This document shows, in pieces, positions 8,188 to 27,972 of a stretch of DNA of 37,861 bases. The notes beneath the pieces are model-generated. The model saw only the letters and a program-made list of their open reading frames with translations, was not told where the DNA came from and did not search any database. Both the position numbers and the translations under genes were made by a program. Source of the stretch: a bacterium (lineage in GTDB: Bacteria; JACRDZ01; JAQUKH01). The DNA lies in NCBI GenBank assembly GCA_028719205.1, contig JAQUKH010000026.1, positions 1 to 37,861 of the forward strand, in the 5' to 3' direction. The stretch's first letter is position 1. Each line of letters begins with the position of its first letter.

Positions 8188-9279
8188 ATGTTAGAAATTA
8201 AAGATTTACAAATAAAAATAGACAATAAAATTTTATTTAATGTGAATTTAAACATAAATAAAGGTGAATATTTTGTTCTGCTTGGGCCCAGCGGAGTGGG
8301 AAAGACGCTTCTGATAGAGACCATTATTAATTTGCGTAAGCCTTACAAAGGGTGTGTTTTATTAGACGGGAAGGACGTCACATCGTTATCGCCGGAAAAC
8401 CGTCCGGTCAGTTATCTTCCCCAGGACTCTTTTCTTTTTCCTCATCTTGGAGTAAAAGATAATATTTATTTTGGCGCGAGAGAGCGAAAGATTCCCGTTG
8501 CTGAACAAAATAAACGATTCGATGATCTGGTCTCTGTTTTAAATATTAAAAATATAATAGGCCGTGATGATGTGCGGACTTTGAGTTTGGGTGAACAGCA
8601 GCGTGTCGCGCTGGCCCGCGCGCTTATGGTCAAGCCCGAAATACTTTTTCTGGATGAGCCGTTTGCCTCCGTTGATGAATATCAGAAAAGGATCCTGCAG
8701 TTGAAATTAAAAGAGATAAACAGGCTGTTTAAAATAACCATTTTCCATGTTACCCATGACCGTGAAGAGGCGTTCATGCTGGGAGACCGCCTGGCGATAA
8801 TGATCGATGGAAAAATAAGGCAGATCGGCGCTCGTGATGATATCTATTACCATCCCACCTGTATTGAGGTTGCCAGGTTTATGTTGAATCAGAATATTTT
8901 TTCAGGGAAGATTCTTGAAGTTACCGGCGAAGAAGCAAATATTGAGATCAAAAAAGGGCTTATTTTAAAGGCATTAAACAGGAGTAAAAAATTCAATGCC
9001 GGGGATCAGGTATATTGCGGTATCCGTCCGGAAGAAATTGCCGTTATCAGGCCGGATCGTCCGCTTAAACCTATGTTACAGGATAATCTTGTGAAAGGTG
9101 AAATATCGGAAATATTTGAAAAGGGCGGCAACCACATACTTATTTTGAAACTTTTAGATAAAGATCCGGATATTGAAGTTGTGATCCCTAATTGCGCTTA
9201 CCGCGACATGGAAACAGCGGTCGGGAAAATAATAAGTGTTTGCCTGAAAAAAAACTCAATATGGATCCTGACGAAATAA
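8188..9279 (+). CDS. ABC transporter ATPase with C-terminal TOBE region (ModC/WtpC-like)
   Basis: Walker A GPSGVGKT, signature LSLGEQQRVALARAL, Walker B LFLDEP, HVTHD. Confidence 0.88.
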   Translation: MLEIKDLQIKIDNKILFNVNLNINKGEYFVLLGPSGVGKTLLIETIINLRKPYKGCVLLDGKDVTSLSPENRPVSYLPQDSFLFPHLGVKDNIYFGARERKIPVAEQNKRFDDLVSVLNIKNIIGRDDVRTLSLGEQQRVALARALMVKPEILFLDEPFASVDEYQKRILQLKLKEINRLFKITIFHVTHDREEAFMLGDRLAIMIDGKIRQIGARDDIYYHPTCIEVARFMLNQNIFSGKILEVTGEEANIEIKKGLILKALNRSKKFNAGDQVYCGIRPEEIAVIRPDRPLKPMLQDNLVKGEISEIFEKGGNHILILKLLDKDPDIEVVIPNCAYRDMETAVGKIISVCLKKNSIWILTK

Positions 9280-9311
9280 AAAAACGGAAAGGCTAAAAAG
9301 GAACAATTAAA

Positions 9312-10289
9312 ATGAAAAGAAAAAAGATTATATTATCGATAATATTTATTTTAATATTCGAACCTTTAGCCTTTATTTATGCTCAATCCAGGGTGACAGG
9401 TTCAGCAGAAGAAGCGTCAATCCGTGATGGAAGAAAACCGGTAAAGCTCTTAAAAATGTTTGGACAGGGCCAGTTTAATTCAATTAATAATATTTATGTT
9501 TCGCCTAAGGGCATAATTTATATTTCTGACGCAAGTGATTGTACCGTAAAGGCTTTTAATATGCGCAATGAATTTTTATTCAGTTTCGGACAGGTATCAG
9601 GATCTAAACTCCAAAGCATTATGGAACTCAGCTCGGATAATGACGGTAATGTTTATGTGGCGGATTATGATCAGGATCTTGTTAATGTTTATAATTCTAA
9701 CGGGAAATATCTTTTTAATATTAAACCGGAAACTGAAATGCAGAAAAAACTTAAGGGCAGAGGAGTTTCCGGTATGGCGGTTAACAGCAGGAGAGATATT
9801 TATATTGCTGACAGCGCGAACGGGCGTATTGAGGTCCGGGATATTAATTTAAAGTACAAATATCAGATAGATATATTTAAAAATAAAGACGGAAAAAAGC
9901 TGGAGCTTATTTCACCGGCTCATCCAAGGATAAACAGCCATGATGAGCTTTATGTTATAGACCCATTGATCAGTAGTGTTCATTGTTTTGACGCGAGAGG
10001 CAATTATTTAAGCAGTTTCGGGACATATTTATCCGCGCCTTCAGGTTTGGCTATTGACAGGTATGACAGGGTATATGTTATAGATATGAGATTCTGTGCT
10101 GTGCTGATCTATGACAGGGAAGGAAAATTTTTATACGCGTTAAGCGATGAAAACGGGAAAGAAATTTATTTACCTTATCCGACCGGTTTGGCAGTAGATA
10201 ATAATGGTTATATTTACGTAGGTTGTAATGACGGAGGCTGGGGTGTTAAGGTTTTTAAATATATACCGGCATGGGGGGAAGGGAAATGA
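9312..10289 (+). CDS. Exported NHL-repeat six-bladed beta-propeller protein
   Basis: Signal peptide; repeated PxGLAxD...YVxD...(V/I) units. Confidence 0.85.
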   Translation: MKRKKIILSIIFILIFEPLAFIYAQSRVTGSAEEASIRDGRKPVKLLKMFGQGQFNSINNIYVSPKGIIYISDASDCTVKAFNMRNEFLFSFGQVSGSKLQSIMELSSDNDGNVYVADYDQDLVNVYNSNGKYLFNIKPETEMQKKLKGRGVSGMAVNSRRDIYIADSANGRIEVRDINLKYKYQIDIFKNKDGKKLELISPAHPRINSHDELYVIDPLISSVHCFDARGNYLSSFGTYLSAPSGLAIDRYDRVYVIDMRFCAVLIYDREGKFLYALSDENGKEIYLPYPTGLAVDNNGYIYVGCNDGGWGVKVFKYIPAWGEGK

Positions 10290-13198
10290 TATATAAAAAG
10301 AGAGGTATTTATCTTCCCGTTTTATTTTGTTTGATATTTTTATCAGGGATAAACAACGTTTACGCGGAAATAATTAACAGCCCGCATGACTTAATTGCAT
10401 GGTTCAATTATTCTACCGTCAGTTCAGGGCAAACAGGGATATGCAGTTTTTGTCATTATCCGAGTGGAGGCGGCGCGCATTTTTTTGTTAATGGAAGAGG
10501 AAGTGATACAGCTAAAATATACGGAATAGTTGCTGAAATGTGCTGGAAATGCCATGGAAATAATCTATATCTGGGCAGGAATGAACCTGTGGTTTATAAC
10601 GAAATTTTTAAAACTATGGACAAAGATCACGCGCCTTTGGATTCACATCCAGTCAGGGGGATAAGTTCCAAAAGTAAGCCTGAAGTATTAAAAAATACTT
10701 ATATCCCGGCAAAGCTGGATTGGCCATGGACGGAAGGCTGGGACAGCGGAAGGGCGGATAGAGATATAGAATGTACTACCTGCCATAATGTTCACGAATG
10801 GAATTCAAAATGGGATACTCCTGACGGAAAGAGAAAATTTTTAAGGGCTCCGGTTTATTATGAATCAGCGGGTATCGGATATGATTTCTGTGTAAACTGC
10901 CACTTTAACAGGGAGAGTGACACAGCAAAAAACAATATAGGGCATCCTGTAGGACTGAACGCGAAATTTTCAAATTCCACAACCGGTATAATAATGAAAG
11001 ATACTACGGGTATGATAAGGTTATACAAAGATGATGTAATCATCTGCCGGACATGTCATATAACTCATGGCGCGGGAAATAACAAAAATGCTGATTTATG
11101 TGATAGATGCCATATTAAAGAGTCTATCCGGGGAAAAGATATATTATTTACTAAACAATTAGCTCATTCGTCAGATTATAATTCAACATTAATTTTAAAT
11201 GATAACGGGATACAAAAAGTCAAACCGTTGGAACTGAATTGGGAATTGCTGAACGCGTCCCGGGAAGGTAACATTGAAGCCGTAAAAACATTATTGGAGA
11301 AAGGTGCTGATGTAAACTCGAAAGATAAAGATGGAAATACTATTTTACATCGCGCGGTTTGGAGCGGCAACAGCGATATGGTAAAGGTCCTGCTGGACAA
11401 GGGCGCGGATATGAAGGCGCGGGACGAAGATGGAGAAACAGCATTATTGAACGCGGCCGGGATGGAGTTTAAAGCGGATATAGTGAAAATTTTGCTGGAT
11501 AGGGGCGCTGATATTAATATAAAGAACAAATATGGCAGAAATGTTCTTATGTTCGTGGCAGGAAAAAATAATAATGATATATTAAAAACTTTACTGGCCA
11601 AAGGCGCGGATGTAAATGAGACAGATAGTAATGGAGCTACCGCTTTGTTTTACGCGGCTTCGAGCGGCAATGCTGATACTATAAAAATATTATTGGAAAA
11701 AGGCGCGGATATAAACGCGAAAGATAAAAACAAAGTTACAGCTTTAATGCTTGCGGCAAAAAGGAGTAATATTGATGTTGTAAAAGTTTTACTTGATAAC
11801 GGCGCGGTTATGAACGCGAGAGATGATGATGGAGCTACAGCCATACTGTCCGCCGCTGATAATAGAGATCAAAAAGATAATAATATCCAGATCGTGAAAA
11901 TGCTGCTGGAAAAAGGCGCGGATATAAACATAAAAAGTAATGATGGTAAAACTGTTCTTATGTGCGCGGTCCAAAGAGGGTATACTGACCTGGTTAAAGT
12001 TTTGCTTGAAAAAGGCGCGGATGTAAACGCGGAAGACAGTATTGGAGCTACTGTTTTATTCCATGCTGTTTGGAACGGGGGAATTGATATAGTCCGGATC
12101 TTAATAGAAAAAGGAGCGAATGTAAACGCGCAAAATAATAACGGAGTGACTGTTTTAATGCGCGCTATTGAATCGGGACATACCGATATAGCGAAAATAT
12201 TACTGGCCAAAGGCGCGAGTGTGAATATAAAAGATAATAACGGAGCTACTGTTTTATTACACGCGTCCTGGAACGGTAATATTGATATGATAAAAATATT
12301 ACTTGGTAAAGGCGTGGATGTAAATTTAAAAGATAAAAACGGGGTAACAGCTTTATTAAACGCGTCTTTTAAGGGTGAAACTGAGGTGGTTAAAATCTTA
12401 TTGGATAATGGCGCGGATATAAAAGCTAAAGGTAAAGACGGATTCACGGCCCTGTTATACGCGACAAAAAGGGGTAATACCGATACTATGAAAGTTTTGC
12501 TCGCCAAGGGCGCGGATTTTAATATAGCTAACAGTGAAGGGAAAAATATTTTAATGTACGCGTCAGAAATGGGTTATACGGATATTGTAAAAACCTTATT
12601 GGAAAAAGGCGCTGATGTGAACGCGAAAGATAAATACGGCGTTACGGCTTTAATGCTTGCTTCAGAAAGCGGTTATAATGATATAGTGAAAATTTTACTG
12701 GAAAAAGGAGCGCAGGATAAGGCAAAAAATAAGAATGAAAATACAGCCTTGTTGAGCGCGGTTGAAACCGGCAATATCGATATTATGAAAGCCTTACTGG
12801 AGAAAAACGCTGATGTGAATATAAAAGATAAAAATGAAGTAACTATTTTAATGCGCGCGGTTGAAAGCGGCAATATAGATATTGTGAACTCTTTACTGGA
12901 AAAAGGCGCGGATATTAACGCTAAAGATAAAGACAGCGTTACGGCTTTGCTGCTCGCGGTTGAAAGGATCTATGATGATATTATGGAAGCTTTACTGAAA
13001 AAAGGCGCTGATGTAAACGCGAAAGATAAAGACGGAGTGACTGTTTTAATGCGCGCGGCTGACAGGGGAAAAATTAATACGGTTAGGTCCTTGCTTGAAA
13101 AAGGCGCGGATATGAAAGCAAAAGATAAAAACGGTTTAACGGCTTTTAATTACGCGGAAAACAGGCATGATAGCGATATTATGAAAATATTGAGATGA
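10286..13198 (+). CDS. Exported hexaheme c-type cytochrome fused to 20 ankyrin repeats
   Basis: Signal peptide; CSFCH, CWKCH, CTTCH, CVNCH, CRTCH, CDRCH; then 20 GxTAL...LLEKGADVN repeats in one open frame. ATGA overlap with the NHL gene. Confidence 0.88.
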   Translation: MIYKKRGIYLPVLFCLIFLSGINNVYAEIINSPHDLIAWFNYSTVSSGQTGICSFCHYPSGGGAHFFVNGRGSDTAKIYGIVAEMCWKCHGNNLYLGRNEPVVYNEIFKTMDKDHAPLDSHPVRGISSKSKPEVLKNTYIPAKLDWPWTEGWDSGRADRDIECTTCHNVHEWNSKWDTPDGKRKFLRAPVYYESAGIGYDFCVNCHFNRESDTAKNNIGHPVGLNAKFSNSTTGIIMKDTTGMIRLYKDDVIICRTCHITHGAGNNKNADLCDRCHIKESIRGKDILFTKQLAHSSDYNSTLILNDNGIQKVKPLELNWELLNASREGNIEAVKTLLEKGADVNSKDKDGNTILHRAVWSGNSDMVKVLLDKGADMKARDEDGETALLNAAGMEFKADIVKILLDRGADINIKNKYGRNVLMFVAGKNNNDILKTLLAKGADVNETDSNGATALFYAASSGNADTIKILLEKGADINAKDKNKVTALMLAAKRSNIDVVKVLLDNGAVMNARDDDGATAILSAADNRDQKDNNIQIVKMLLEKGADINIKSNDGKTVLMCAVQRGYTDLVKVLLEKGADVNAEDSIGATVLFHAVWNGGIDIVRILIEKGANVNAQNNNGVTVLMRAIESGHTDIAKILLAKGASVNIKDNNGATVLLHASWNGNIDMIKILLGKGVDVNLKDKNGVTALLNASFKGETEVVKILLDNGADIKAKGKDGFTALLYATKRGNTDTMKVLLAKGADFNIANSEGKNILMYASEMGYTDIVKTLLEKGADVNAKDKYGVTALMLASESGYNDIVKILLEKGAQDKAKNKNENTALLSAVETGNIDIMKALLEKNADVNIKDKNEVTILMRAVESGNIDIVNSLLEKGADINAKDKDSVTALLLAVERIYDDIMEALLKKGADVNAKDKDGVTVLMRAADRGKINTVRSLLEKGADMKAKDKNGLTAFNYAENRHDSDIMKILR

Positions 13199-13201
13199 AA
13201 T

Positions 13202-13510
13202 ATGAGTCAAAATAAAAAAATCTGCAATCAATGCGGGAAATGCTGCGAAGGGGCATTTTTTCTTATTGATGATGCCTACACGGAAGGCGGATTAGACCAT
13301 CTTGAATGGGCGCGGAACCACGGCCTGAAGACCGTCTTCAGGGAAAATTCCGAAGGGAAAAGGCTTTGGGGAATAGAACTGGATACGCCCTGTAAATATT
13401 TGCAAAAAAGCGCGGACGGGAAATCGTTTTGCGCGATCTATGAAAACCGCCCCAAAATGTGCAGGATCTACACCGGAGAAAAAGAATTTCCTGATTGCGG
13501 ATATAAATGA
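13202..13510 (+). CDS. YkgJ-family CxxCxxCC cysteine-cluster protein
   Basis: CNQCGKCC...CKYL...CAIYENRPKMCR. Confidence 0.88.
   Translation: MSQNKKICNQCGKCCEGAFFLIDDAYTEGGLDHLEWARNHGLKTVFRENSEGKRLWGIELDTPCKYLQKSADGKSFCAIYENRPKMCRIYTGEKEFPDCGYK
13476..13510 (+). repeat. Direct repeat A, copy 1 (3' end of the YkgJ-family gene)
   Basis: GAGAAAAAGAATTTCCTGATTGCGGATATAAATGA; 34/35 identical to 17132-17166. Confidence 0.95.
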
Positions 13511-13548
13511 GCTGCCTACCTGGCAAAAAAATCCATAGGATATAAAAC

Positions 13549-16500
13549 ATGAAATTTTCGAATAAAAACTTATTGCTTTTAAATGGTATAGTTTTATTGA
13601 TTTTATGTTTACATTCGTATTCAACGGCTATAGAGTTTAACTCTGGTTTAATATCCGCGGCGGAAAAAGGTGATATTAATACAGTTAAGCAGTTGTTAGA
13701 TCAAGGCGCGGATATAAACGTGAAAGACAGGAATGGTATTACCGCTTTGATAACAGCGGTATGGAATAGTTATACAGAGATAGTAAAGCTGCTGTTAGAA
13801 AAAGGCGCGGATGTGAACGCGAAAGATGATTATGGCCGGACTGTTCTGATGAAAGCGGTTGAGGATGGAAATATAGAGATAATAAAACTGTTAATGGATA
13901 AAGGCGCGGATATAAACAAAAAAGATATAGATGGAAATACTGCTTTGATATTAGCGGGAAGTTTTAATCGCCTGGAAGCAGTAACACTGCTGCTGGAAAA
14001 AAACGCTGATATTAATATTAAAAATGACGAAGGTTTCACAGCCTTTACATGGGCGTCTGAAGGAGGTTATATAGAAATAGTAAAGGAATTGCTGGAAAAA
14101 GGCGCGGATGTGAATGCGAAAACAAAGGATGGTTTTACTCCTCTTATGTTCGCGGCACGGGAGAGCCATATAGAGGTATTAAAGTTATTGCTGGATAAAA
14201 AAGCGGATGTGAACGTACAGGCAAAAAAAACCGGATTTACAGCGCTGATGTTAGCGGAAGAAAATGGTTTTAATGAGGGAGTAAAACTGCTGTTGGAAAA
14301 AAGCGCTAATGTAAATGCTAGAGATAATGCCGGTGTCACTGCCTTGATGAAAGCGGCAGAGAAAGGGAGTACAGAAATAGTAAAGTTACTGTTGGAAAAA
14401 GGCGCGGATGTAAACGCCAAAGATAATAGCAGTGTCACAGTTTTAATAAAAACGACAGAGAGCGGGAGTGCGGAAATAGTGAAATTACTGCTGGAAAAAG
14501 ATGCGGATGTAAATGTAAAAACAAAAGATGGCGGTTTTACCGCTTTGATGGAAGCGGCAAAGAAAGGCCAAATAGATATAGTACAGCTTCTACTGGAAAA
14601 AGGCGCTCATGTAAACACAAAAGCAGATAATGGTCTTGCTACCGCTCTGATCTACGCGGAAAAAAATGGCAACAAAAAAATAGTAAAATTGCTTAAAGAA
14701 GCGGGAGCCGCGGAGGCTAGTGCCAATAACCCCCCTGATCTAATATCCGCGGCGGAAAAAAATGATATAAAAACAGTTAAGCAGTTGTTAGATAAAGGCG
14801 CGGATGTAAATGTGAAAGATAAATATGGTTTCAATGTTTTGATAAAAGAGGCGGGGAGCGGTCATACGGAAATCGTAAAATTATTATTGGAAAAAGGCGC
14901 GGTTGTAAACGCGAAAACAAAAGGCGGCTATACTGCCCTGATGGCGGCGGCAGAGCAGTATAATAATACTGAGATCTTAAAAATGCTGCTGGATAAAGGC
15001 GCTATTATAAACGCGAAAACGGATAAAGGCGATAACGCTTTAATATACGCGGCAAGAGAGGGGCACACGGAAATAGTAAAAATATTACTGGCCAAGGGAG
15101 CGGATCTACACGCGAAAGACAAATATGGCCGTACCGTTCTGATGGAAGTGACAGATAGGGGTTATAAAGATATATTAAGGTCATTGGAGAATAAAGGAAC
15201 GGATATGACATCTGATATTACTGCTTTGGTGAACTCGGAATGGAATAACTACATGCAAATAGTAGAAATATTGTTGGATAAAGGCTTGGAGGTTAACGCG
15301 AAAACAAATTCCGGTTTTACCGCTCTGATGGGAGCGGCAAGGAATAGTAATAAGGAGATAGTAAAACTATTACTGCGTAAAGGAGCGGATGTAAACGCGA
15401 AAGATAAGGAAGGAAAAAATGTTTTGATGTCCGCGCTGGGCCGTGAGGGAAGCCGGACAGAAATAGTAAAATTATTACTGGATAAGGGTGCTGATGTGAA
15501 TGATTTAAAGAAAGAAGATTTCACGGCCTTTATATGGGCGTCTGAAGAAGGTTATATGGAAATAGTAAAGAAAATGCTGGCAAAAGGCGTGGATGTGAAT
15601 GTAAAAACAAATGACGGCTTCACTGCTTTGATGAAAGCGGCAGAGAAGGGGCGTACAGAAATAGTAAAACTGTTGTTGGAAAAAGGCGCGGATGTAAACA
15701 CGAAAAAAGATGACGGCCTTACTACCGCTCTTATGTACGCAAAGGAGCATGGGCACGAAAATATAGTAAAAATGCTAAAAGACGCCGGAGCTGAAGAAAC
15801 TATTGTTAATAGCGGCCCGGATTTAACATCCTTGAAGGAAAAAGGTGATATAAATAAAGAAGAACTGGTTCCGGCAAAAGCCGCGGTTATAAACGCGAAA
15901 GACACAGAGGACACTAACGCTCTGATAATTCCGAAAGTATTGGAGGAAGAAAATGTTGATATTAAGGTTCTGGCTGAAGGAAATAATACCTTTGCTGTTA
16001 ATTTATATAACCGGCTCAAAATTCAGGATGGGAATTTATTTTATTCTCCTTATAGTATTTCAACCCTGCTTGCCATGGTTTATGCCGGCGCCCGCGGAAA
16101 TACTGAGAAACAGATAGCTGAAACTTTATCCTTTCCATTTAACCGTGAACAATTTCATCCGGTTTTTGCGGGCATCATGAAGGAGTTGGGCGCGGCGCGA
16201 GGAGATAACAAAATGGAACTAAGGATGTCCAATGGCCTCTGGGTACAGAAGGATCATGTTTTTCTTAAAGAATATCTCGATTTAAATAAAATGTATTATG
16301 ATGCTGAACCGTACAATGTGGATTTCAGGAATAATGGCGAAATAGCCCGCCTGAAGATCAATAAGTGGGTGGAAGATGGAACGAAAAATAAAATTAAGCA
16401 TTTAGTCCCGCCTGGAATGATCAATTCTAATACAAAATTTATTTTAACCAACGCTGTTTATTTTAAAGCCGGATGGCTGCGCAGGTTTGGGAAAAATATT

Positions 16501-17118
16501 ACAAAGGATGCACCCTTCAAACTTCCTTCAGGAAAAAATATAAATGTGAAAATGATGTCCGGGTACGGAGAATATGAATATGGAGAAAATAATAATTTAC
16601 AAATTTTAGAAATGCCTTATAAAGACAGTGATATATCAATGATCGTATTACTGCCAAAAAAATATGATGGTTTAATGGAGACAGAAAAAATAATAAATGA
16701 TGCAAATATTAAAGAATGGATAAGTTCTCTGGAAAAGAAAGACGTGAATGTTTTATTACCGAAATTTAAAATAACTTCCAGCTTTAACCTTTCACAGTTT
16801 CTTATTTTAATGGGAATGAGTGACGCGTTCAATTTATATAAAGCTGATTTTTCAGGGATAGCGGATTTTTCTAAAATGGATAGTACAAATAACTTATTTA
16901 TATCAGAAGTAATTCACAAAGCCTTTATAGATGTAAATGAAGAAGGTGCTGTTGCCGGAGCCGCGACTTACGCGGATATGACGGAAGGAGGTATATCCAA
17001 AGATGCACCGGTTTTCAGAGCGGACCGTCCGTTTATATTCCTGATACGCGATAATTGGTCGGGAAACATTTTATTTTTAGGCAGAGTAACTGACCCAAAT
17101 GTTTTTTTAGAAGAGTAA
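13549..17118 (+). CDS. Exported ankyrin-repeat protein (22 repeats) with C-terminal serpin domain
   Basis: Signal peptide and ankyrin repeats; serpin from about 15961 (NNTFAVNLY, NLFYSPYSI, INKWVEDGT, NAVYFKAGW, HKAFIDVNEEG, FRADRPFIFLI, LFLGRVTDP). Confidence 0.9.
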   Translation: MKFSNKNLLLLNGIVLLILCLHSYSTAIEFNSGLISAAEKGDINTVKQLLDQGADINVKDRNGITALITAVWNSYTEIVKLLLEKGADVNAKDDYGRTVLMKAVEDGNIEIIKLLMDKGADINKKDIDGNTALILAGSFNRLEAVTLLLEKNADINIKNDEGFTAFTWASEGGYIEIVKELLEKGADVNAKTKDGFTPLMFAARESHIEVLKLLLDKKADVNVQAKKTGFTALMLAEENGFNEGVKLLLEKSANVNARDNAGVTALMKAAEKGSTEIVKLLLEKGADVNAKDNSSVTVLIKTTESGSAEIVKLLLEKDADVNVKTKDGGFTALMEAAKKGQIDIVQLLLEKGAHVNTKADNGLATALIYAEKNGNKKIVKLLKEAGAAEASANNPPDLISAAEKNDIKTVKQLLDKGADVNVKDKYGFNVLIKEAGSGHTEIVKLLLEKGAVVNAKTKGGYTALMAAAEQYNNTEILKMLLDKGAIINAKTDKGDNALIYAAREGHTEIVKILLAKGADLHAKDKYGRTVLMEVTDRGYKDILRSLENKGTDMTSDITALVNSEWNNYMQIVEILLDKGLEVNAKTNSGFTALMGAARNSNKEIVKLLLRKGADVNAKDKEGKNVLMSALGREGSRTEIVKLLLDKGADVNDLKKEDFTAFIWASEEGYMEIVKKMLAKGVDVNVKTNDGFTALMKAAEKGRTEIVKLLLEKGADVNTKKDDGLTTALMYAKEHGHENIVKMLKDAGAEETIVNSGPDLTSLKEKGDINKEELVPAKAAVINAKDTEDTNALIIPKVLEEENVDIKVLAEGNNTFAVNLYNRLKIQDGNLFYSPYSISTLLAMVYAGARGNTEKQIAETLSFPFNREQFHPVFAGIMKELGAARGDNKMELRMSNGLWVQKDHVFLKEYLDLNKMYYDAEPYNVDFRNNGEIARLKINKWVEDGTKNKIKHLVPPGMINSNTKFILTNAVYFKAGWLRRFGKNITKDAPFKLPSGKNINVKMMSGYGEYEYGENNNLQILEMPYKDSDISMIVLLPKKYDGLMETEKIINDANIKEWISSLEKKDVNVLLPKFKITSSFNLSQFLILMGMSDAFNLYKADFSGIADFSKMDSTNNLFISEVIHKAFIDVNEEGAVAGAATYADMTEGGISKDAPVFRADRPFIFLIRDNWSGNILFLGRVTDPNVFLEE

Positions 17119-17131
17119 GCATGAGCACTGA

Positions 17132-17166
17132 GAGAAAAAGAATTTCCAGATTGCGGATATAAATGA
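17132..17166 (+). repeat. Direct repeat A, copy 2 (orphan YkgJ-family gene tail before recN)
   Basis: GAGAAAAAGAATTTCCAGATTGCGGATATAAATGA. Confidence 0.95.
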
Positions 17167-17178
17167 TAAAATACAGCT

Positions 17179-18846
17179 ATGTTATCCCAGCTTAAAATAC
17201 AAAATTTCGGATTGATAGATTCGCTTGCGATAGATTTCTCGGATAAATTAAATATATTTACGGGAGAGACCGGCGCGGGGAAATCTATTCTTATTGACGC
17301 GCTGCGTTTTTCACTGGGGGAACGTTTAGACAGTTCCCAGGTTCGTGACGCGGATAAGCCCTGTGCCGTTGAATCCGTTTTTGAACTTACGGATAAATTT
17401 CTTAAAGAGACACCTGCTTTTTCTGAATATATTTCCGATGAGGACCCGCTTCTTATTATAAACCGCACGTATCTTCCTGACGGCCGCAACAGGATCAAAA
17501 TAAACGGATTTAACATAACGGTTTCGCAGTTAAAAGAGATCGGCAATCATCTTGTTGATTTTCACGGGGCGAACGACCACCAGATGATCCTGGCGGAGGA
17601 ATCGCACATAAAGATCATCGACAGGCTTTCTGACCTTGCAGCGGAAAAAGATGAATATGCCAAAAAATATGCCGGATATTTAAATCTGCAAAAAGAACTG
17701 GATGAATTGCGGGCTTCTTCAAAGAACCGTGAGCAGGACGAACAGCTTCTAAAACATCAGATAACGGAACTGGAACAGGTTACGCTTGATGAAGCTAACT
17801 ACAGGAATATTCTGGAAGAACGCGCCCGCATGAATAATTCCGAAAAATTATACGAACACGCCGGTGAACTGGTTAAGATCTTTGAAGATGAAGAAACCGG
17901 CCTGGATAAACTGATCACGCAGGCGTTCGGCCCGATGAAGGCATTGAATAATCTGGATAAGGGAACAATTAATTTTATGGAAGTACTTAAAAATATGCAG
18001 GAAGAGGCACAAGGATTATCGCACGATCTTTCCAATTACCTTGACAGTCTTTCCTTTAACCCTGATAAAACAAAAAATATAAATTCGCAGTATGATTCCT
18101 ATTATGAAATATTAAGAAAATACGGCCCGGCATTGGAGGACGCGGAAAAAATATACGAGTCGGCGAAGAAAAAATATGAATTGTTAGTAAATCTGGAATA
18201 TAACGATTCAAAATTAAAAGAAGAAATACAGGCACTTCGGAACGAACTGAAAAAGATCGCGGATAAAATAACAGCGAAACGCAATAAAACATCAAAATTT
18301 TTAAAAGAAACAATTGAAAAAGAATTAAAAGAACTGGGCATTAAAAATATCCAATTTGAAGCAAGGATCGATAAGATTGATTTTACCGATAAAGGGCAGG
18401 ACAGGGTTGTTTTTTACATGAGCCCGAATATCGGCGAGGAATTAAAACCTCTGGCGCAGATAGTCTCGGGCGGAGAGTCGGCAAGAGTGATGCTCGCTAT
18501 AAAAAAAGCGTTGACCAAAGTAGACCCGATCCCGGTTCTCGTTTTTGACGAGATAGACGCGCAGATCGGAGGCCGGCTTGGGGACATCACAGGCAAAAAA
18601 CTCAAAGAGCTTTCGGACAACCGACAGGTAATACTTATTACGCACCTTCCACAGATCGCCGCGTTTTCCGACCATCATTTCAAAGTCACAAAAAAAGTTA
18701 AAGACAACCGCACGATAATAAACGTGGACCTCCTTGATAAAACCGCTCGCGTGGAGGAATTGGCGAAAATGATGAGCGGGGAGAAAGAATCTCCGATCGC
18801 GTTGAAGCACGCGAGAGAGATGCTTGGGAGAGTGGAAAATGGATAA
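17179..18846 (+). CDS. recN: DNA repair protein RecN
   Basis: TGETGAGKS, coiled coil, VSGGESARVMLA, LVFDEID, ITHLPQIAA. Confidence 0.96.
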   Translation: MLSQLKIQNFGLIDSLAIDFSDKLNIFTGETGAGKSILIDALRFSLGERLDSSQVRDADKPCAVESVFELTDKFLKETPAFSEYISDEDPLLIINRTYLPDGRNRIKINGFNITVSQLKEIGNHLVDFHGANDHQMILAEESHIKIIDRLSDLAAEKDEYAKKYAGYLNLQKELDELRASSKNREQDEQLLKHQITELEQVTLDEANYRNILEERARMNNSEKLYEHAGELVKIFEDEETGLDKLITQAFGPMKALNNLDKGTINFMEVLKNMQEEAQGLSHDLSNYLDSLSFNPDKTKNINSQYDSYYEILRKYGPALEDAEKIYESAKKKYELLVNLEYNDSKLKEEIQALRNELKKIADKITAKRNKTSKFLKETIEKELKELGIKNIQFEARIDKIDFTDKGQDRVVFYMSPNIGEELKPLAQIVSGGESARVMLAIKKALTKVDPIPVLVFDEIDAQIGGRLGDITGKKLKELSDNRQVILITHLPQIAAFSDHHFKVTKKVKDNRTIINVDLLDKTARVEELAKMMSGEKESPIALKHAREMLGRVENG

Positions 18847-22140: not shown

Positions 22141-22187
22141 AAAAATTATTGATAAAGACATGAAATTGTAAAAAAATGGAGGTTAAA

Positions 22188-23354
22188 ATGAAAATAAAAA
22201 ATGGCGGATTAATTTGTATCCTGTTTTTTGCGATATTATCAGCAGGATTTTCTAATGTTTTCGCTGAAAACACTTTAAGGAAAATTGTTGTGTTTAAAAA
22301 AGGTTTTTCAGACACTTTAAAACAAACGAAACTTGTTGAAGGTTTAAAAGGGATCAAAATAAAAAACCTGAAACTGATCAACGCGATGGCGGTGGAATTA
22401 TCATCAAGCGCGGAAAAAGAGGTCTTAAAGAGGCCTGAAGTTGAAAGAATTGATGAAGACATAATTATTTACACTAGCGGGAAACCTTCTAAACCGCCTA
22501 GTCCACAGCCGGCGGAAGTTTTGCCATGGGGTGTCGACAGGATAAATGCTGAAATGACCTGGAGTATAACAACCGGTTCAGGTATTAAAGTTGCGATCGT
22601 GGATACTGGTATTTTTTTAAATCACCCTGACCTTGTTAATAATATAAAAGGAAATGTTAATACGATTAATCCGGCAAAAGGTGGTAATGATGATAACGGT
22701 CACGGAACACACGTCGCAGGTATAGTTGCCGCAATGGACAATAGCTTTGGTGTAATTGGTGTCGGGCCGAATATCAGCCTTTACGCGGTAAAGGTTTTGG
22801 GCAAGAACGGTACAGGCTGGCTTTCTGATATCATTGAAGGCCTTGACTGGTGCATCAATAACGGGATCAATGTTGTAAATATGAGCCTCGGTTCATCCGG
22901 TGGGAACCAGTCATATCATGACGCGATAATAAGGGCTTATCAGGCGAGGATTGTTCTGGTTGCCGCGAGCGGTAATGAAGGCGGCCCGGTAAGTTATCCT
23001 GCCGTGTATCCCGAAGTTATCGCGGTTGCCGCGACGGATGGATCGGACAATATTGCGAGCTGGTCAAATAGAGGGCCGGAAGTGGACCTGGCCGCGCCCG
23101 GAGTAAATATTTACTCAACATATAAGGACGGTTTTTATAAAACTTTAAGCGGAACAAGCATGGCTTCCCCTCATGTCGCGGGGGCCGCGGCTCTTGTTTT
23201 AACCAGTCCTGTTGGCGCGTACGACGCTAATTTAAACGGAAAATGGGATCCGCTTGAAGTCATGAATAAACTAAAAGACAACGCCGAGAATCTCGGTTTT
23301 TCAACGGACCTGCAGGGTGCAGGATTAGTCAGGCCTGATCTGGCGATAGAATAA
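22188..23354 (+). CDS. Secreted subtilisin-like S8 peptidase with propeptide
   Basis: Signal peptide; triad [25 protein letters not shown]. Start placed after GGAGG. Confidence 0.95.
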
Positions 23355-23362
23355 GGTGAAAT

Positions 23363-23524
23363 ATGAATAATGACGGCATGATACGTAAAGAAGTAGGGCA
23401 TTATAAAAAAGTATCCCCACTGAAAAAGGCCTTTGAATTAAATAAAATGCTGGAAGAACTTCGCGGTAAAAGGGTTGATACAAAAAATGAAAACATTCGA
23501 AAAGTTGTTGGAAAAGTTAAGTGA
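23363..23524 (+). CDS. Small hypothetical protein (53 aa), possibly antitoxin-like
   Basis: AAGGTGA RBS then MNNDGMIRKEVGHYKKVSPLKKAFELNKMLEELRGKRVDTKNENIRKVVGKVK; below the ORF-track cutoff. Confidence 0.45.
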   Translation: MNNDGMIRKEVGHYKKVSPLKKAFELNKMLEELRGKRVDTKNENIRKVVGKVK

Positions 23525-23560
23525 AAATAAAATAAATATTGGTTATTATTTAACGAAAAT

Positions 23561-23628
23561 GTAGGGGCGATTCGAGAATCGCCCTTTTTTATTTGCATTT
23601 ATTTGTAGGGGTTTGATTTATCAAACCC
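23561..23628 (+). repeat. Two tandem GTAG-type REP hairpins; the first may also act as a terminator
   Basis: GTAGGGGCGATTCGAGAATCGCCC (23561-23584) followed by T6, and GTAGGGGTTTGATTTATCAAACCC (23605-23628). Confidence 0.85.
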
Positions 23629-23659
23629 TATTAAAATAATAAGTCACACAAAAGCCCCC

Positions 23660-24180
23660 CATTTTTATAGTAATAAGAATAATTACAAATTATTATAATA
23701 TTAATATATTAAAATAATAATATATGTTAAATAGTATAATAATAATTACATAATTACCTATATAATAAAGTTATTTATATAATAATAAATGTTAATAAAA
23801 TAGTTAATTTACATAGTAACAAATAGTATATTATTAAATATTATTATTTAATAAATCGTAACAACCTATAAATAAAAGATATTTATAAAATAATGCTTGC
23901 TAAATATAAAATATGTATTATATTATTACAATCATTAAATAATAGTATTAATTAAATATAAAAATATAATTTATGTAACTGCTTGTATAATATATCTATT
24001 TATATATTAAATAATTTAATGATAGTAAAGGGTTTAATCATTAGAAAATAGTATTATATTAATTATTCTTATTAAGTAAATGTAACAGTTTATAGATAAA
24101 AGATATTTACGAAAAAAAGATTGACAAATATATTTTAAATGCTATAATTCTTATGTCATATGAAAAAATATTTATTAAAA
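23660..24180. other. Extremely AT-rich non-coding tract with degenerate direct repeats
   Basis: Hand count of 50 G+C in 420 bp (23701-24120, about 12%); AATAGTAT...GTAAC units at 23822, 23941 and 24047. Confidence 0.85.
24121..24148 (+). promoter_or_regulatory. Sigma70 promoter of the island operon
   Basis: TTGACA, 16 bp spacer, TATAAT with an extended TG. Confidence 0.75.
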
Positions 24181-24194
24181 TATGGAGGTAAAAT

Positions 24195-24533
24195 ATGAAA
24201 AAAAATGTTCAAAAGATTGTAGAACAAATTAAAGAGCTTTTAGATCAATTAGCTACAATAGCTGGGGGGCAACATGTTGATAAAAAACTTTTAGTAAAAT
24301 CTGGTTCAGCTACTTCAAAAGGTGCTTCTGGTGCACTTTTATTACTTATAAATGAGGGTTTTTTTGATTCACCAAAAGATTTTAGTTCAATAATGGAAAA
24401 ATTGAAAGAGATTGGACGCTATTATCCCAAACCTACTGTTTCAATGAATTTATTAAATCTTACTAAAAGACGAACATTTAGTCGTCTTAAGAATAATGAC
24501 GTAGCAGGTTGGCAATATACATTAAGAAAATAA
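24195..24533 (+). CDS. Hypothetical protein, probable winged helix (putative defence)
   Basis: GGAGG RBS; LINEGFFDSPKDFSSIMEKLKEIGRYYPKPTVSMNLLNL...WQY pattern. Confidence 0.7.
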   Translation: MKKNVQKIVEQIKELLDQLATIAGGQHVDKKLLVKSGSATSKGASGALLLLINEGFFDSPKDFSSIMEKLKEIGRYYPKPTVSMNLLNLTKRRTFSRLKNNDVAGWQYTLRK

Positions 24534-24549
24534 TTTATGGAGGTATTAT

Positions 24550-24948
24550 ATGAAAGAACACGAAATAATGGAAATTCTAAAACGCATTGATAGACTTGAA
24601 AAAGCTATATTTAGTAGTGAGAAGAAAAAAACAACAGTAAAGGAAAAAAGAGTTTTAGGTAGTGATATTAATTTTTCGCTTAATGAGAGAACATTTGTCA
24701 AAAGATATGCTTGCGATAAAAGTGGCCCCAAAAAACTTACTTTATTGCTTGCCTATTTTACAAAAGGTGCACTTGATAAAAGTATAGAACTTGCTGACAT
24801 AAAAAAACTTTGGAATAAAATGAAAACAAAAACTTTGCTAGGTACATTTAATATGTTTTATACAAGTGAAGCAAAAACAAAAGGATGGATTGATTCAAAA
24901 AAATATGGTTATTATAATTTAACAAATGAATGGAAGAATGTTTTATGA
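24550..24948 (+). CDS. Hypothetical protein, probable winged helix (putative defence)
   Basis: GGAGG RBS; N-terminal coiled coil; LLLAYF...IKKLW...AKTKGWI...GYYNLT pattern. Confidence 0.7.
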   Translation: MKEHEIMEILKRIDRLEKAIFSSEKKKTTVKEKRVLGSDINFSLNERTFVKRYACDKSGPKKLTLLLAYFTKGALDKSIELADIKKLWNKMKTKTLLGTFNMFYTSEAKTKGWIDSKKYGYYNLTNEWKNVL

Positions 24949-25730
24949 ATACTGAGAAAAAAGTAAAAGATTTATTAGCTAATAAATTTGGAATTAGGAA
25001 AATTGATTCATTTGTTAATTATTTATTGTCTTGTGTGCAAAAGTATGAAGAAGGCGATTGGGAAAATTCTTTAATCAATGCAGGTAAATTCGTTGAAGTA
25101 ATAATTAAATTAATATGGATTTATTGTGGTAAATCATTACCCACTAGAGCGAAAGATTTCAAAGCAAGTGTATATGCAGATAAAATAACAAGAGAAGTTC
25201 CAGCCGCAAATGTTCCTGAGGATGCAATACGTATTCAAATACCTCGTGCATGTATTTTTATCTATGATATAACTTCAAATCGTGGGGCTCGGCATGATTC
25301 AGATGAAGTGAATCCTAATGAAATGGATGCTACTGTAGTAGTTTCTATGTGCTCATGGGTAGTTGCTGAACTCATTCGTTTTTCAGCAAAGCAATTAATT
25401 AATATTAATGAAGCAAAAAAAATAGTCGATTCACTAATGGAACGCAAATATCCATTTTTTGAAGAAATTGATGAGAGAGTATATGTTGATAAAGGAAAAT
25501 TTAAAAGTGCACCTGAATGTGCTATTTTAATTTTATATAAATTATATCCACGTAGAATTAACAAAGAAACATTAATAGGCTTTGTAAAACTTCATAATTT
25601 TAGACCTACAGCAATTAAATTCGAACGTTTGAATTCTTATATCGATATTGATAAAAAAGGTGAAATATTATTGCGTGCAACTGGAAGGAAAAAGGCGGAA
25701 CATATTTTGAAACGGGACTCAGGGGGGTAA
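24945..25730 (+). CDS. Hypothetical protein, HEPN/Abi-like helical domain plus C-terminal winged helix (putative defence)
   Basis: AGKFVE...IPRACIFIYDITSNRGARHD...PNEMDA; C-terminal LRATGRKKAE; ATGA overlap with the upstream gene. Confidence 0.6.
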   Translation: MNTEKKVKDLLANKFGIRKIDSFVNYLLSCVQKYEEGDWENSLINAGKFVEVIIKLIWIYCGKSLPTRAKDFKASVYADKITREVPAANVPEDAIRIQIPRACIFIYDITSNRGARHDSDEVNPNEMDATVVVSMCSWVVAELIRFSAKQLININEAKKIVDSLMERKYPFFEEIDERVYVDKGKFKSAPECAILILYKLYPRRINKETLIGFVKLHNFRPTAIKFERLNSYIDIDKKGEILLRATGRKKAEHILKRDSGG

Positions 25731-25929
25731 TAGTCCACTTAGAAAAGATTCTTTAACAAAACGAAATTAATTTTCATTGATGAAACTAAGGAAGTTGATG
25801 GGTTGTTGTTTGAAAAGTTTAATGTGTTTTGGAAAATATTGTTATCAAAATTTCAGAATTATTAAAATTTTATAACAATTACGTAATATTGAATATCAAT
25901 TGTTACAAATTAAAAGAGGGAATTAATAA

Positions 25930-26838
25930 ATGTTTGATGTATTTACAGAAGAAATTGAAGTTACCATAAAAGACGGAATGGCAAATTTATATTGGTACAA
26001 AGGTGATTTGCATAAATCTTGGCTTAGGTCTGGTGTTGATATTGCTCTATGTAATCAAATAAAAAATACGAAAAATGCTGAAGCAAATAATCTAACAAAA
26101 CGTCAACAAATGGACTTGTTGTATCAAACACTGAGAGACAATGATTATAATAGACGATTAGAAATTTCTAGGAATTTTGTCAGAATACTTATTGAACAAA
26201 AAACATTTTCTCCACAAGACCCAAAACACCGAATAGAAATAGCAGAAAAAGCAGCTCTTAAGCTTAAAGATATAATACGAGAACAAGAAAAAGATTTGGA
26301 ATACCAGGAATCTATAAAAAGAAAAGCTCATAAATCAAAAGAGAAAGACTATTATACTCAGCTTCTTGAAATTAGAGATGACTTTGTTTCTGCTCAAGAA
26401 CTGGAACCGCAGCAAAAAGGATATGCACTTGAAAAATTATTTGTAAAACTTATGCAAGCAAGCCAAGTCTTGGTTGAAGAGCCTTTTTGTATAAAGGGTG
26501 AGCAGCTTGATGGTGCCATAAAGCATGATGGACATTATTATTTAATTGAACTTAAATGGACACAATCCAAAGTAGAACCTAAAGATATTGGAAGTTTTTT
26601 TTATAAGGTAGAAGGAAAGTTAGATTCTCGTGGTCTAATTATATCAATGAATGGGTATACAGATGGCGTCATTGATTCTCTCCCTAGAGGGAAAGAACTA
26701 AAAATTCTTTTGATGGATGGTATTCACTTAGCAAATGTTATATATGGGATGTATACATTCCGTGAGCTTTTGGAACATGCAATTAGTCAAGCATCTTTAA
26801 AAGCTAATTTATATTGCAATCATAACTTAAAGGCATGA
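25930..26838 (+). CDS. Mrr-like PD-(D/E)XK restriction endonuclease with N-terminal helical domain
   Basis: GYALEKLF...EQLDGAI...YLIELKW...GLIISMNGYT...LMDG. Confidence 0.8.
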   Translation: MFDVFTEEIEVTIKDGMANLYWYKGDLHKSWLRSGVDIALCNQIKNTKNAEANNLTKRQQMDLLYQTLRDNDYNRRLEISRNFVRILIEQKTFSPQDPKHRIEIAEKAALKLKDIIREQEKDLEYQESIKRKAHKSKEKDYYTQLLEIRDDFVSAQELEPQQKGYALEKLFVKLMQASQVLVEEPFCIKGEQLDGAIKHDGHYYLIELKWTQSKVEPKDIGSFFYKVEGKLDSRGLIISMNGYTDGVIDSLPRGKELKILLMDGIHLANVIYGMYTFRELLEHAISQASLKANLYCNHNLKA

Positions 26839-26844
26839 GTAAAA

Positions 26845-26882
26845 GATGCGAACGTTGTTTTTGTGGGAACATTGCATCCTAC
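26845..26882 (-). repeat. Candidate divergent GTAG REP hairpin
   Basis: The minus strand reads GTAGGATGCAATGTT-CCCACAAAAAC-AACGTTCGCATC (imperfect stem). Confidence 0.45.
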
Positions 26883-27046
26883 ATATACTAACCATTTGTA
26901 AAACAATATGAAAAAAATCAACAATCGTCAAAACAAATTAATTCAAATAAACCCGGTAAAGTATTTCAACAAAGAAAATTTAAAGCTGGCGCAAAAAATT
27001 GGGAGAAGGGCTGATTCAAAACTTGACCGGAGAGGGGTGAAATAAT

Positions 27047-27467: not shown

Positions 27468-27511
27468 TCCATTTTGCTAATTGCGACAGATTTTCTTTAA
27501 TAATCCCCCAA

Positions 27512-27972
27512 ATGAAATCCAAATACAACCCCGATGTACATCACAGGAAATCATCGATGGATTTCAAATAATGCCGAACCATATTCATGGGATTATTATG
27601 ATTAATGTAGGGGCGCAATTCATTGCGCCCTGCCAATCGGTAATTAAACAACAGGGCGGTAAAAATCAGGGCGTGATGAATCACGCCCCTACAATTGGGG
27701 AAATTGTACGTTCGTTTAAGGCACGATGTACCCGTGCGATTAACAAAATTCATAATAATATAGATATACCTGTTTGGCAGCGAAATTATTACGAACACAT
27801 AATCCGCAATGAAATTGAATTAAATTCCATCCGGGAATATATTGTAAATAATCCATTGAAATGGCCGGATGATGAAAATAATCCGGATAACATTATGAAA
27901 TATTATCCGGTTTTAGTGGTAAAATATATAAAAATATTTAATATCACCTGCAGAAAAAATAACAGAAATTAA
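27512..27972 (+). pseudogene. Internally deleted, frameshifted RAYT transposase
   Basis: MKSKYNPDVHHRKS from ATG 27512 is joined out of frame at about 27551 to IDGFQIMPNHIHG...WQRNYYEHIIR...YIVNNP; about 59 codons are missing relative to 1628-2209. Confidence 0.88.
27607..27692. repeat. Inverted pair of GTAG-type REP hairpins inside the RAYT pseudogene
   Basis: GTAGGGGCGCAATTCATTGCGCCC (27607-27630) and GGGCGTGATGAATCACGCCCCTAC (27669-27692). Confidence 0.85.

Follow-up and report, generated by a model that had tools for sequence, protein, structure and literature searches.

The locus examined here raises the question of how a gene for a 1189-amino-acid (aa) protein, combining ankyrin repeats with a serpin domain, came to stand between a small YkgJ-family gene and recN with a copy of the YkgJ 3' end on each side of it. 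It lies in contig JAQUKH010000026.1 of assembly GCA_028719205.1, analyzed over positions 1 to 37,861 (37,861 nucleotides, hereafter the window). The source assembly, G000, is a metagenome-assembled draft of 2,587,072 bases in 68 contigs, 92.66% complete and with 1.22% contamination. An earlier note, made from the letters of the window, had described the repeats and proposed that the gene is a single-gene cassette able to excise by recombination between them. As set out below, what that note had seen in the sequence was reproduced, and the excisable-cassette part of its proposal, possible in principle, is unsupported and on the anatomy of the segment not favoured. The explanation that we prefer, and to which we give about an even chance of being correct, is that the segment is the fixed scar of a Campbell-type integration by a circular DNA carrying its own YkgJ 3' end.

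A single gene between two copies of a gene tail

The YkgJ-family gene (13202..13510; this and the following features of the locus are on the plus strand) is intact and encodes 102 aa, its open reading frame (ORF) matching PF03692 (CxxCxxCC) over residues 8–92 with 38.3 bits (cut-off 23). Its final 32 coding bases and the TGA stop form the left copy of a 35-nt direct repeat (13476..13510, GAGAAAAAGAATTTCCTGATTGCGGATATAAATGA). The right copy (17132..17166) is identical at 34 of the 35 positions, the sole difference being a T at 13492 in the left copy versus an A at 17148 in the right one; in the YkgJ frame this is CCT versus CCA, proline either way, as had been reported, and the longest perfect runs shared by the copies are 16 and 18 nt. 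By a rough analytic estimate, the chance expectation for a 34/35 match between two flanks of 400 nt is about 2e-13, and in 100 dinucleotide-preserving shuffles of the window the 35-mer never had two or more matches at up to three mismatches. At the same tolerance, the whole G000 assembly holds only the two copies at this locus, which excludes a dispersed repeat family as the source of the second copy, an origin that the earlier note had named as speaking against its proposal. The right copy is non-coding since a TGA at 17122–17124 precedes it in the YkgJ frame, and it is contiguous with the 12-nt native spacer between YkgJ and recN (17167..17178, TAAAATACAGCT; TAAAATACGTTAT in the relative G001 described below) and with recN itself (17179..18846), which starts with an ATG at 17179 and encodes 555 aa with Pfam matches to SMC_N and AAA_23. 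The right edge of the repeat is exactly the last base of the YkgJ stop codon, and removal of the interval leaves, as had been pointed out, the YkgJ stop 12 nt from the recN start.

The interval between the repeats (13511..17131; 3,621 bp) proved to be a single-gene segment, made of a 38-nt leader (13511..13548) that has no counterpart in G001, the ankyrin-serpin gene (13549..17118) and a 13-nt trailer from the serpin stop to the right repeat (17119..17131). The leader holds a small hairpin of 4–5 bp (CTGCC..GGCA) and an AGGA 9–12 nt before the ATG, and the gap of 38 nt suggests that the gene is probably transcribed from upstream genes. The translation opens with a short charged stretch followed by a hydrophobic one, which in our own reading looks like a signal peptide. 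An ankyrin array follows at about residues 30–790, in two similar halves (Ank_2, E 9e-174; 565 bits in 12 stretches), with a 99-nt periodicity in the DNA and tandem 33-residue repeats above the cut-off. The serpin domain occupies residues 811–1183 and covers profile positions 2–370 of the 370 in PF00079 (E 9.9e-116; 387.4 bits, cut-off 27); it aligns end to end with its best solved relative, 8gxv_A (E 2.8e-82). A small-residue hinge is associated with inhibitory serpins, and the predicted hinge of the present domain, EEGAVAGAAT versus EKGTEAAAAT in 8gxv_A, has small residues as in those proteins. Pfam searches revealed no recombinase or transposase domain in the segment, whose sole ORF is the ankyrin-serpin gene, and its ends carry no terminal inverted repeats beyond chance, since the best match, of 7 nt, was equalled in 112 out of 200 shuffles.

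The empty site in a relative and the origin of the gene

Two other genomes of the same genus, G001 (98% complete) and G002 (92%), were compared with G000. In G001 (contig C31) the site is empty, the YkgJ stop being followed by 13 nt and the start of recN. The G001 YkgJ orthologue is 86% identical in protein and at 261 of 309 positions in DNA, and each copy of the repeat matches its tail at 33 of 35 positions. In a joint alignment the left window junction tracks G001 up to the YkgJ stop codon, and the right one tracks it from the start of the repeat through the spacer into recN, so that the intact junction of G001 aligns to both junctions of the window and supports an insertion between YkgJ and recN. 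Homology at the right junction may extend a few bases leftward (CAC.G, with one indel); the presence of TGAG at both junctions makes the breakpoints ambiguous by 2–4 nt, and GA/GAGA is ambiguous at the right one. The comparison of synteny in relatives advised in the earlier note shows the empty site in G001 and neither state in G002, where the YkgJ gene is missing.

A search for the serpin domain found one place in G000 and matched 7 of 41 genomes in all, counting G000; no match was obtained in G001, G002 or three genomes of the same phylum. Together with the empty site of G001, this points to insertion in the G000 lineage, and a gain of the ankyrin-serpin gene in that lineage would be the economical reading. 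As to timing, an older gain followed by a precise loss in G001 is a possible alternative.

No close relative of the ankyrin-serpin gene was found in the databases searched, the nearest serpin domain being 48% identical among the matches listed (proteins of 653–2081 aa). Ankyrin Pfam domains occur in 23 of the 119 listed non-self serpin proteins (334 matches in all), and the array is N-terminal to the serpin domain in the four ankyrin-carrying proteins checked; several of these records are labelled Planctomycetes or Phycisphaerae. Ankyrin-serpin proteins of uncultured Planctomycetota/Phycisphaerae and of other metagenomic bacteria are therefore alike in architecture, with ankyrin repeats N-terminal and serpin C-terminal, but their serpin domains are only 42–48% identical to the present one among the matches listed, and the present protein, with 1189 aa, is the longest of the ankyrin-carrying ones listed. 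Bacterial serpins with solved structures, such as 8gxv, share the full-length serpin domain and the small-residue hinge. A literature search for ankyrin-serpin fusions yielded nothing relevant, and viral contigs contained neither relatives of the serpin domain nor matches to the 23-nt core of the repeat with one position left free. As a separate observation, many metagenomic proteins of about 650–730 aa among the listed serpin matches fuse sigma-70 family domains (PF04542/PF04545/PF08281) to a serpin, a fusion at least as common as ankyrin-serpin among those matches.

Composition gave no sign of a foreign origin for the serpin part, which is typical of the genome: its tetranucleotide distance falls at the 35th percentile of equal-sized genome windows, its GC3 is 0.338 versus a genome mean of 0.364, and among 1136 long ORFs its synonymous-codon score ranks at the 85th percentile. 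What is atypical in the ankyrin part is shared with the neighbouring ankyrin gene, and in DNA this part is 64–79% alike to the other ankyrin genes of the genome. Such native-like composition implies either a donor of similar make-up or a gene long resident in the lineage.

These figures also bear on whether the junctions are an artefact, in which a segment from another organism would have been joined to the contig via the shared 35-mer. The fragmented and incomplete state of the draft, with its 1.22% contamination, gives some room for such a chimera. However, the exact overlaps of 16 and 18 nt are below usual assembly k-mers, the serpin part matches the rest of the genome in composition and codon use, and the junctions stand in a register that restores the YkgJ gene. 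Assembled contigs of three runs (X1–X3) from one study of a landfill metagenome were also compared with the locus at 85% likeness. In run X1, possibly the source sample, a single independently built Logan contig of 17,651 nt, probably from the same reads, covers 12900–17700 with 0 differences. Run X2 contributed two small identical pieces within the insert (13645–13818 and 16671–16921), and run X3 a 223-nt piece of recN whose 14 differences mark a related strain. On this evidence an assembly chimera is highly improbable. The joint expected of an excised form, 13510–17167, was not among the joints listed in these contigs, which cannot show a rare excised form; all joints listed fall within or between ankyrin repeats.

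How the gene tail may have been duplicated

Under the preferred Campbell-type reading, a circular DNA with a YkgJ 3' end that differed slightly from the resident one would have met that gene in the G000 lineage, and its 3.62 kb segment would have become integrated exactly behind the YkgJ stop codon, upstream of recN. A single crossover would have sufficed, carried out either by a site-specific integrase encoded outside the present segment or by short-homology recombination. It would have duplicated the shared 35 bp, the left copy completing YkgJ and the right one staying as a non-coding relic that ties recN to its original upstream sequence; the segment would now be immobile.

The uniqueness of the repeat, the empty site in G001, the lack of serpin matches in the same-genus and same-phylum relatives searched and a native-like composition, which points to a donor of similar make-up, are all in keeping with this origin, and further observations argue for it. 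The variable site of the repeat holds three bases in three sequences (T in the left copy, A in the right copy, G in G001); the original copy cannot be told from this, and two copies of different descent, one incoming and one resident, fit it better than a fresh duplication. The repeat edge at the last base of the stop codon is the geometry of gene-restoring attachment sites, which favours an incoming tail copy. The same gene-restoring register is found at a tRNA-Glu and a tRNA-Leu gene of G000, described below, and lends further support. Precedents exist for both routes. In the experiments reported in PMC3240628, single crossover of a circle via short homology left a flanking duplication in 56 of 60 clones, of 109–950 bp in the 14 clones sequenced; these products, a side product of homology-facilitated illegitimate recombination, resemble the present case in that a direct duplication arose without element-encoded machinery, and differ in that here the duplication is 35 bp with one mismatch and the donor circle is hypothetical. 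Segments that lack an integrase and retain both attachment sites correspond to cis-mobilizable elements (CIMEs), an end state of decayed elements as described in PMC5704250.

Several observations weigh against the Campbell-type reading. There is no integrase in or beside the segment, the three PF00589 matches of G000 being on other contigs (C35, C17 and C4), and the flanks of 38 and 13 nt leave integrase arm sites hardly any space and make it look contrived that a larger element should have decayed to exactly one gene. RecA-dependent crossover in E. coli needs a minimal homology, and 35 bp broken into perfect runs of 16 and 18 nt falls on the short side. Neither a donor nor a circular form nor a further copy turned up in the assembly, the protein databases or the viral contigs, and the one mismatch in 35 nt could also be a later mutation. 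Finally, when metagenomes were scanned for relatives of YkgJ, 41 loci were obtained, at most 35% identical, and no further occupied or empty sites; eight of the loci were dropped for lack of an in-frame stop or for having less than 300 nt downstream, and in none of the 33 testable ones is the gene tail repeated (at 26/30 or better), so that within this sample YkgJ tails are not targeted recurrently.

Some of these points are met by a second explanation, which we hold tentatively and with clearly less confidence, namely that the duplication was made de novo at the target. Two nicks 35 nt apart, or a replication fork that changed template and returned 35 nt upstream, would have let a linear or copied piece of DNA be joined in through end joining or microhomology; both copies would then descend from the resident YkgJ tail and one would have mutated since. 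End joining is available to this organism, as a Ku gene is present in G000 (C22:21011–21553, E 1.6e-42). The TGAG at both junctions and the GA/GAGA at the right one could be junction microhomology, and a segment without recombinase and without room for arm sites, trimmed to one gene, is what such an event could leave. On the other hand, a random staggered break could have had its right edge at any of about 13 positions without damaging YkgJ, and the edge observed is precisely where the stop codon ends; the copies have diverged, with no other hint of great age; the assembly offers no further copy of the gene that could have been the template; and 35 nt far exceeds the 2–15 nt usual for target duplications of bacterial transposons. 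Target-site duplication by a transposon or insertion sequence is alike in leaving a direct repeat of target sequence on both sides, but apart from the length of the repeat, the segment has no transposase and no terminal inverted match beyond chance. The window does contain two ORFs for IS200-like Y1 transposases (1628–2209 and 27481–27972); the IS200-like family is not known to make target duplications.

Whatever its origin, the duplication leaves YkgJ intact, and recN retains the 35 nt that stood upstream of it prior to the insertion. On weak evidence, a promoter-like site (17143..17172), TTTCCA-18-TAAAAT with a TG preceding the second hexamer, extends over the right repeat and into the native spacer, its end being 6 nt from the recN ATG. 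A promoter scan of the region gave 12 sites versus 11.4 expected in shuffles, so that the total equals chance expectation and this site is only a lead. If real, it would explain why only an insertion carrying this duplication was tolerated.

In its strong form, the excisable cassette of the earlier note would be a one-gene segment devoid of integrase and still mobile, comparable to a cis-mobilizable element, its two 35-nt sites serving for excision and re-integration by a recombinase that another part of the genome supplies. Similar inserts in G000 are relevant here. On contig C4 (84450–93328) a tRNA-Glu gene is followed 8.8 kb downstream by a copy of about 28 nt of its tail (27/28), beside which lies an ORF for a 402-aa tyrosine integrase (PF00589; 91888–93096, minus strand); this segment looks like an intact integrative element. 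On contig C5 (50152–51450; locus L124, 2653–3951) a tRNA-Leu(CAA) gene is followed by a 1.16 kb insert and then by a 51-nt copy of its tail (49/51). This insert has one ORF of 201 aa (50426–51031, minus strand), Gly-rich and with a hydrophobic N-terminus, and no integrase, and the corresponding site is empty in G001 (contig C38). An ankyrin gene (48372–50081) lies just upstream of this tRNA-Leu.

The tRNA-Leu insert thus provides a second integrase-less insert with the same geometry, and the tRNA-Glu element and two more tyrosine recombinases are present in the genome. A mobile cassette would also account for attL/attR-like repeats that restore the target gene and for the empty site in G001, and cis-mobilizable elements are a class described in PMC5704250. 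Against it stand the confinement of the 35-mer to two copies in the genome and the lack of its 23-nt core in viral contigs, the failure to find a relative of the cassette in another context, flanks too small for arm sites, the absence of tail copies from the 33 distant YkgJ loci and the lack of a recombinase encoded in the segment. Present mobility of the ankyrin-serpin segment is, on balance, unlikely. A broader proposal is also unlikely, namely that the lineage possesses a whole class of such cassettes, each with one gene, no integrase and a replacement for the 3' end of its target gene, and that a recombinase from outside the cassette moves them; the insertions of the ankyrin-serpin gene at YkgJ and of the putatively exported 201-aa protein at tRNA-Leu, whose sites are both empty in the sister species, would fit as candidate members.

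The comparison with CIMEs can be drawn more closely. In these and other decayed integrative elements, as PMC5704250 describes them, direct repeats of the 3' end of a target gene flank strain-specific DNA; the likeness extends to a left copy that restores the gene, to the lack of integration genes inside and to an empty site in a relative. The present case differs in that a small protein-coding gene takes the place of the tRNA or other described hot spot as target, that there is one cargo gene with flanks of 38 and 13 nt and no recognisable arm region, and that neither a cognate integrase nor an intact parent element was identified, excision being putative. Integron cassettes offer another parallel, a single promoterless-looking gene inserted as a unit. 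However, only 13 nt follow the serpin stop, which leaves no room for an attC site, and the surroundings lack an integron integrase; such cassettes are not known to have a neighbouring gene's tail copied at their flank.

The finding, a fairly ordinary scar of gene acquisition, neatly illustrates a type of event that is already known. It is of interest as a cleanly resolved gene gain, with target, both junctions and empty site visible, in a barely sampled uncultured Omnitrophota-like lineage, and for its cargo, in which a predicted exported protease inhibitor is combined with a long ankyrin array of the protein-binding type. It is also noteworthy that G000 has more than one insert with a duplicated gene tail and no integrase. 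If such inserts were mobilised in trans, this would add a new wrinkle to the acquisition of effector-like genes, and tail-replacing cassettes, if true, would be a route for shuffling secreted effector-like genes.

Other repeats of G000 were noted alongside. Copies of the last ~24 nt of a tRNA-Leu (C7, 28888–29169) and of a tRNA-Ser (C17, 34633–34929) each lie about 200 nt from their own tRNA and are both preceded by the same sequence, CCAGAGGGGCGGAGCCCCTATGGAGAGCG.AGCGAGTTCAA; they may represent a small element family or a tRNA-like module that fits its end to the tRNA in question. The hairpin CCCCTCTTTTTTTAAAGAGGGG belongs to a dispersed family, with 5 exact copies, or 28 when up to 4 mismatches are allowed, on contigs C9, C3, C4, C30, C1 and others, often as inverted pairs about 70 nt apart. 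An ankyrin gene on C9 with flanking repeats (68829–68923 and 70991–71098) was considered as a second target duplication and rejected, since its repeat belongs to this hairpin family.

The wider locus and other features of the window

The surroundings of YkgJ vary across the genus. In the window, YkgJ is preceded by an NHL-repeat gene (9312..10289) that overlaps the following gene, and by a gene of 975 aa (10271..13198) with a CXXCH/multihaem-cytochrome-like N-terminus, its Pfam matches being near the cut-off, and about 20 ankyrin repeats; the latter stops 3 nt before the YkgJ start. In G001 the orthologous NHL/cytochrome-ankyrin pair sits elsewhere (contig C127), and this pair and the ABC genes are on contigs other than that of YkgJ. 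Gene pairs of NHL and cytochrome type recur as paralogues on G000:C42, G001:C49 and C127, and G002:C173.

The recN gene is 82% identical to that of G002 and 70% to that of G001. In G002 an ABC-transporter ATPase gene, the counterpart of window 8188–9279, is followed by 13 nt and then recN, with no NHL, ankyrin-cytochrome, YkgJ or ankyrin-serpin gene between them. G002 would have lost YkgJ by deletion, because G000 shares the YkgJ-recN adjacency with G001, the more distant of the two relatives. The ABC gene and YkgJ have similar ends (GAAATAAA vs GATATAAA; locus L020 on G002:C94, 5790–5832, against window 17150–17181 and 9262–9282), and the spacer in G002 is also similar to the YkgJ-recN spacer. 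Speculatively, a deletion through short homology could have turned a G000-like arrangement into that of G002.

This fluidity bears on a further explanation, by which the repeats would stem from local rearrangement: either there were formerly two copies of YkgJ, with the ankyrin-serpin gene behind one and recN behind the other, and a deletion took out all that lay from the serpin stop to the final 35 nt of the recN-side copy, or the ankyrin array was duplicated from the upstream gene. Ankyrin arrays do stand on both sides of YkgJ, 64–79% alike in DNA, and each of the three genomes of the genus has the region in a different arrangement. Yet the likeness of the arrays is no higher than to the ankyrin gene on C9 and is far below the 34/35 of the tails; the ankyrin-serpin ORF has its own signal-peptide-like start; G000 and G001 have one YkgJ gene each; and the ankyrin-then-serpin architecture exists independently, as seen in the listed proteins. 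We regard local rearrangement as quite unlikely, and retain the Campbell-type integration as the preferred reading.

Directly upstream of YkgJ, G001 carries a species-specific gene for a 1586-aa alpha-2-macroglobulin (L008, G001:C31, 4080–8840, minus strand), which as a query found no match in G000 or G002. In two species, different accessory protease inhibitors are therefore found on opposite sides of the same YkgJ, and the locus may be a small hot spot for secreted inhibitors of this sort. Beyond the genus, a scan of a genome collection found a YkgJ homologue within the flanks of none of 35 recN loci of other species, most of them titled Candidatus Omnitrophota and 50–63% identical, which indicates that the YkgJ-recN adjacency is confined to this genus.

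Elsewhere in the window, a SocA/Panacea antitoxin-like gene is located at 476–1270. The stretch 23500–26900 has a G+C content of 0.20–0.30 versus 0.375 for the genome and contains three ORFs without Pfam matches; an ORF resembling Mrr_cat restriction endonucleases (25930–26838) lies in this low-G+C stretch, and is followed by the second of the Y1 transposase ORFs (27481–27972). A subtilase gene (22176–23354; Peptidase_S8, E 2.6e-58), 5 kb downstream of the serpin, encodes a candidate target protease.

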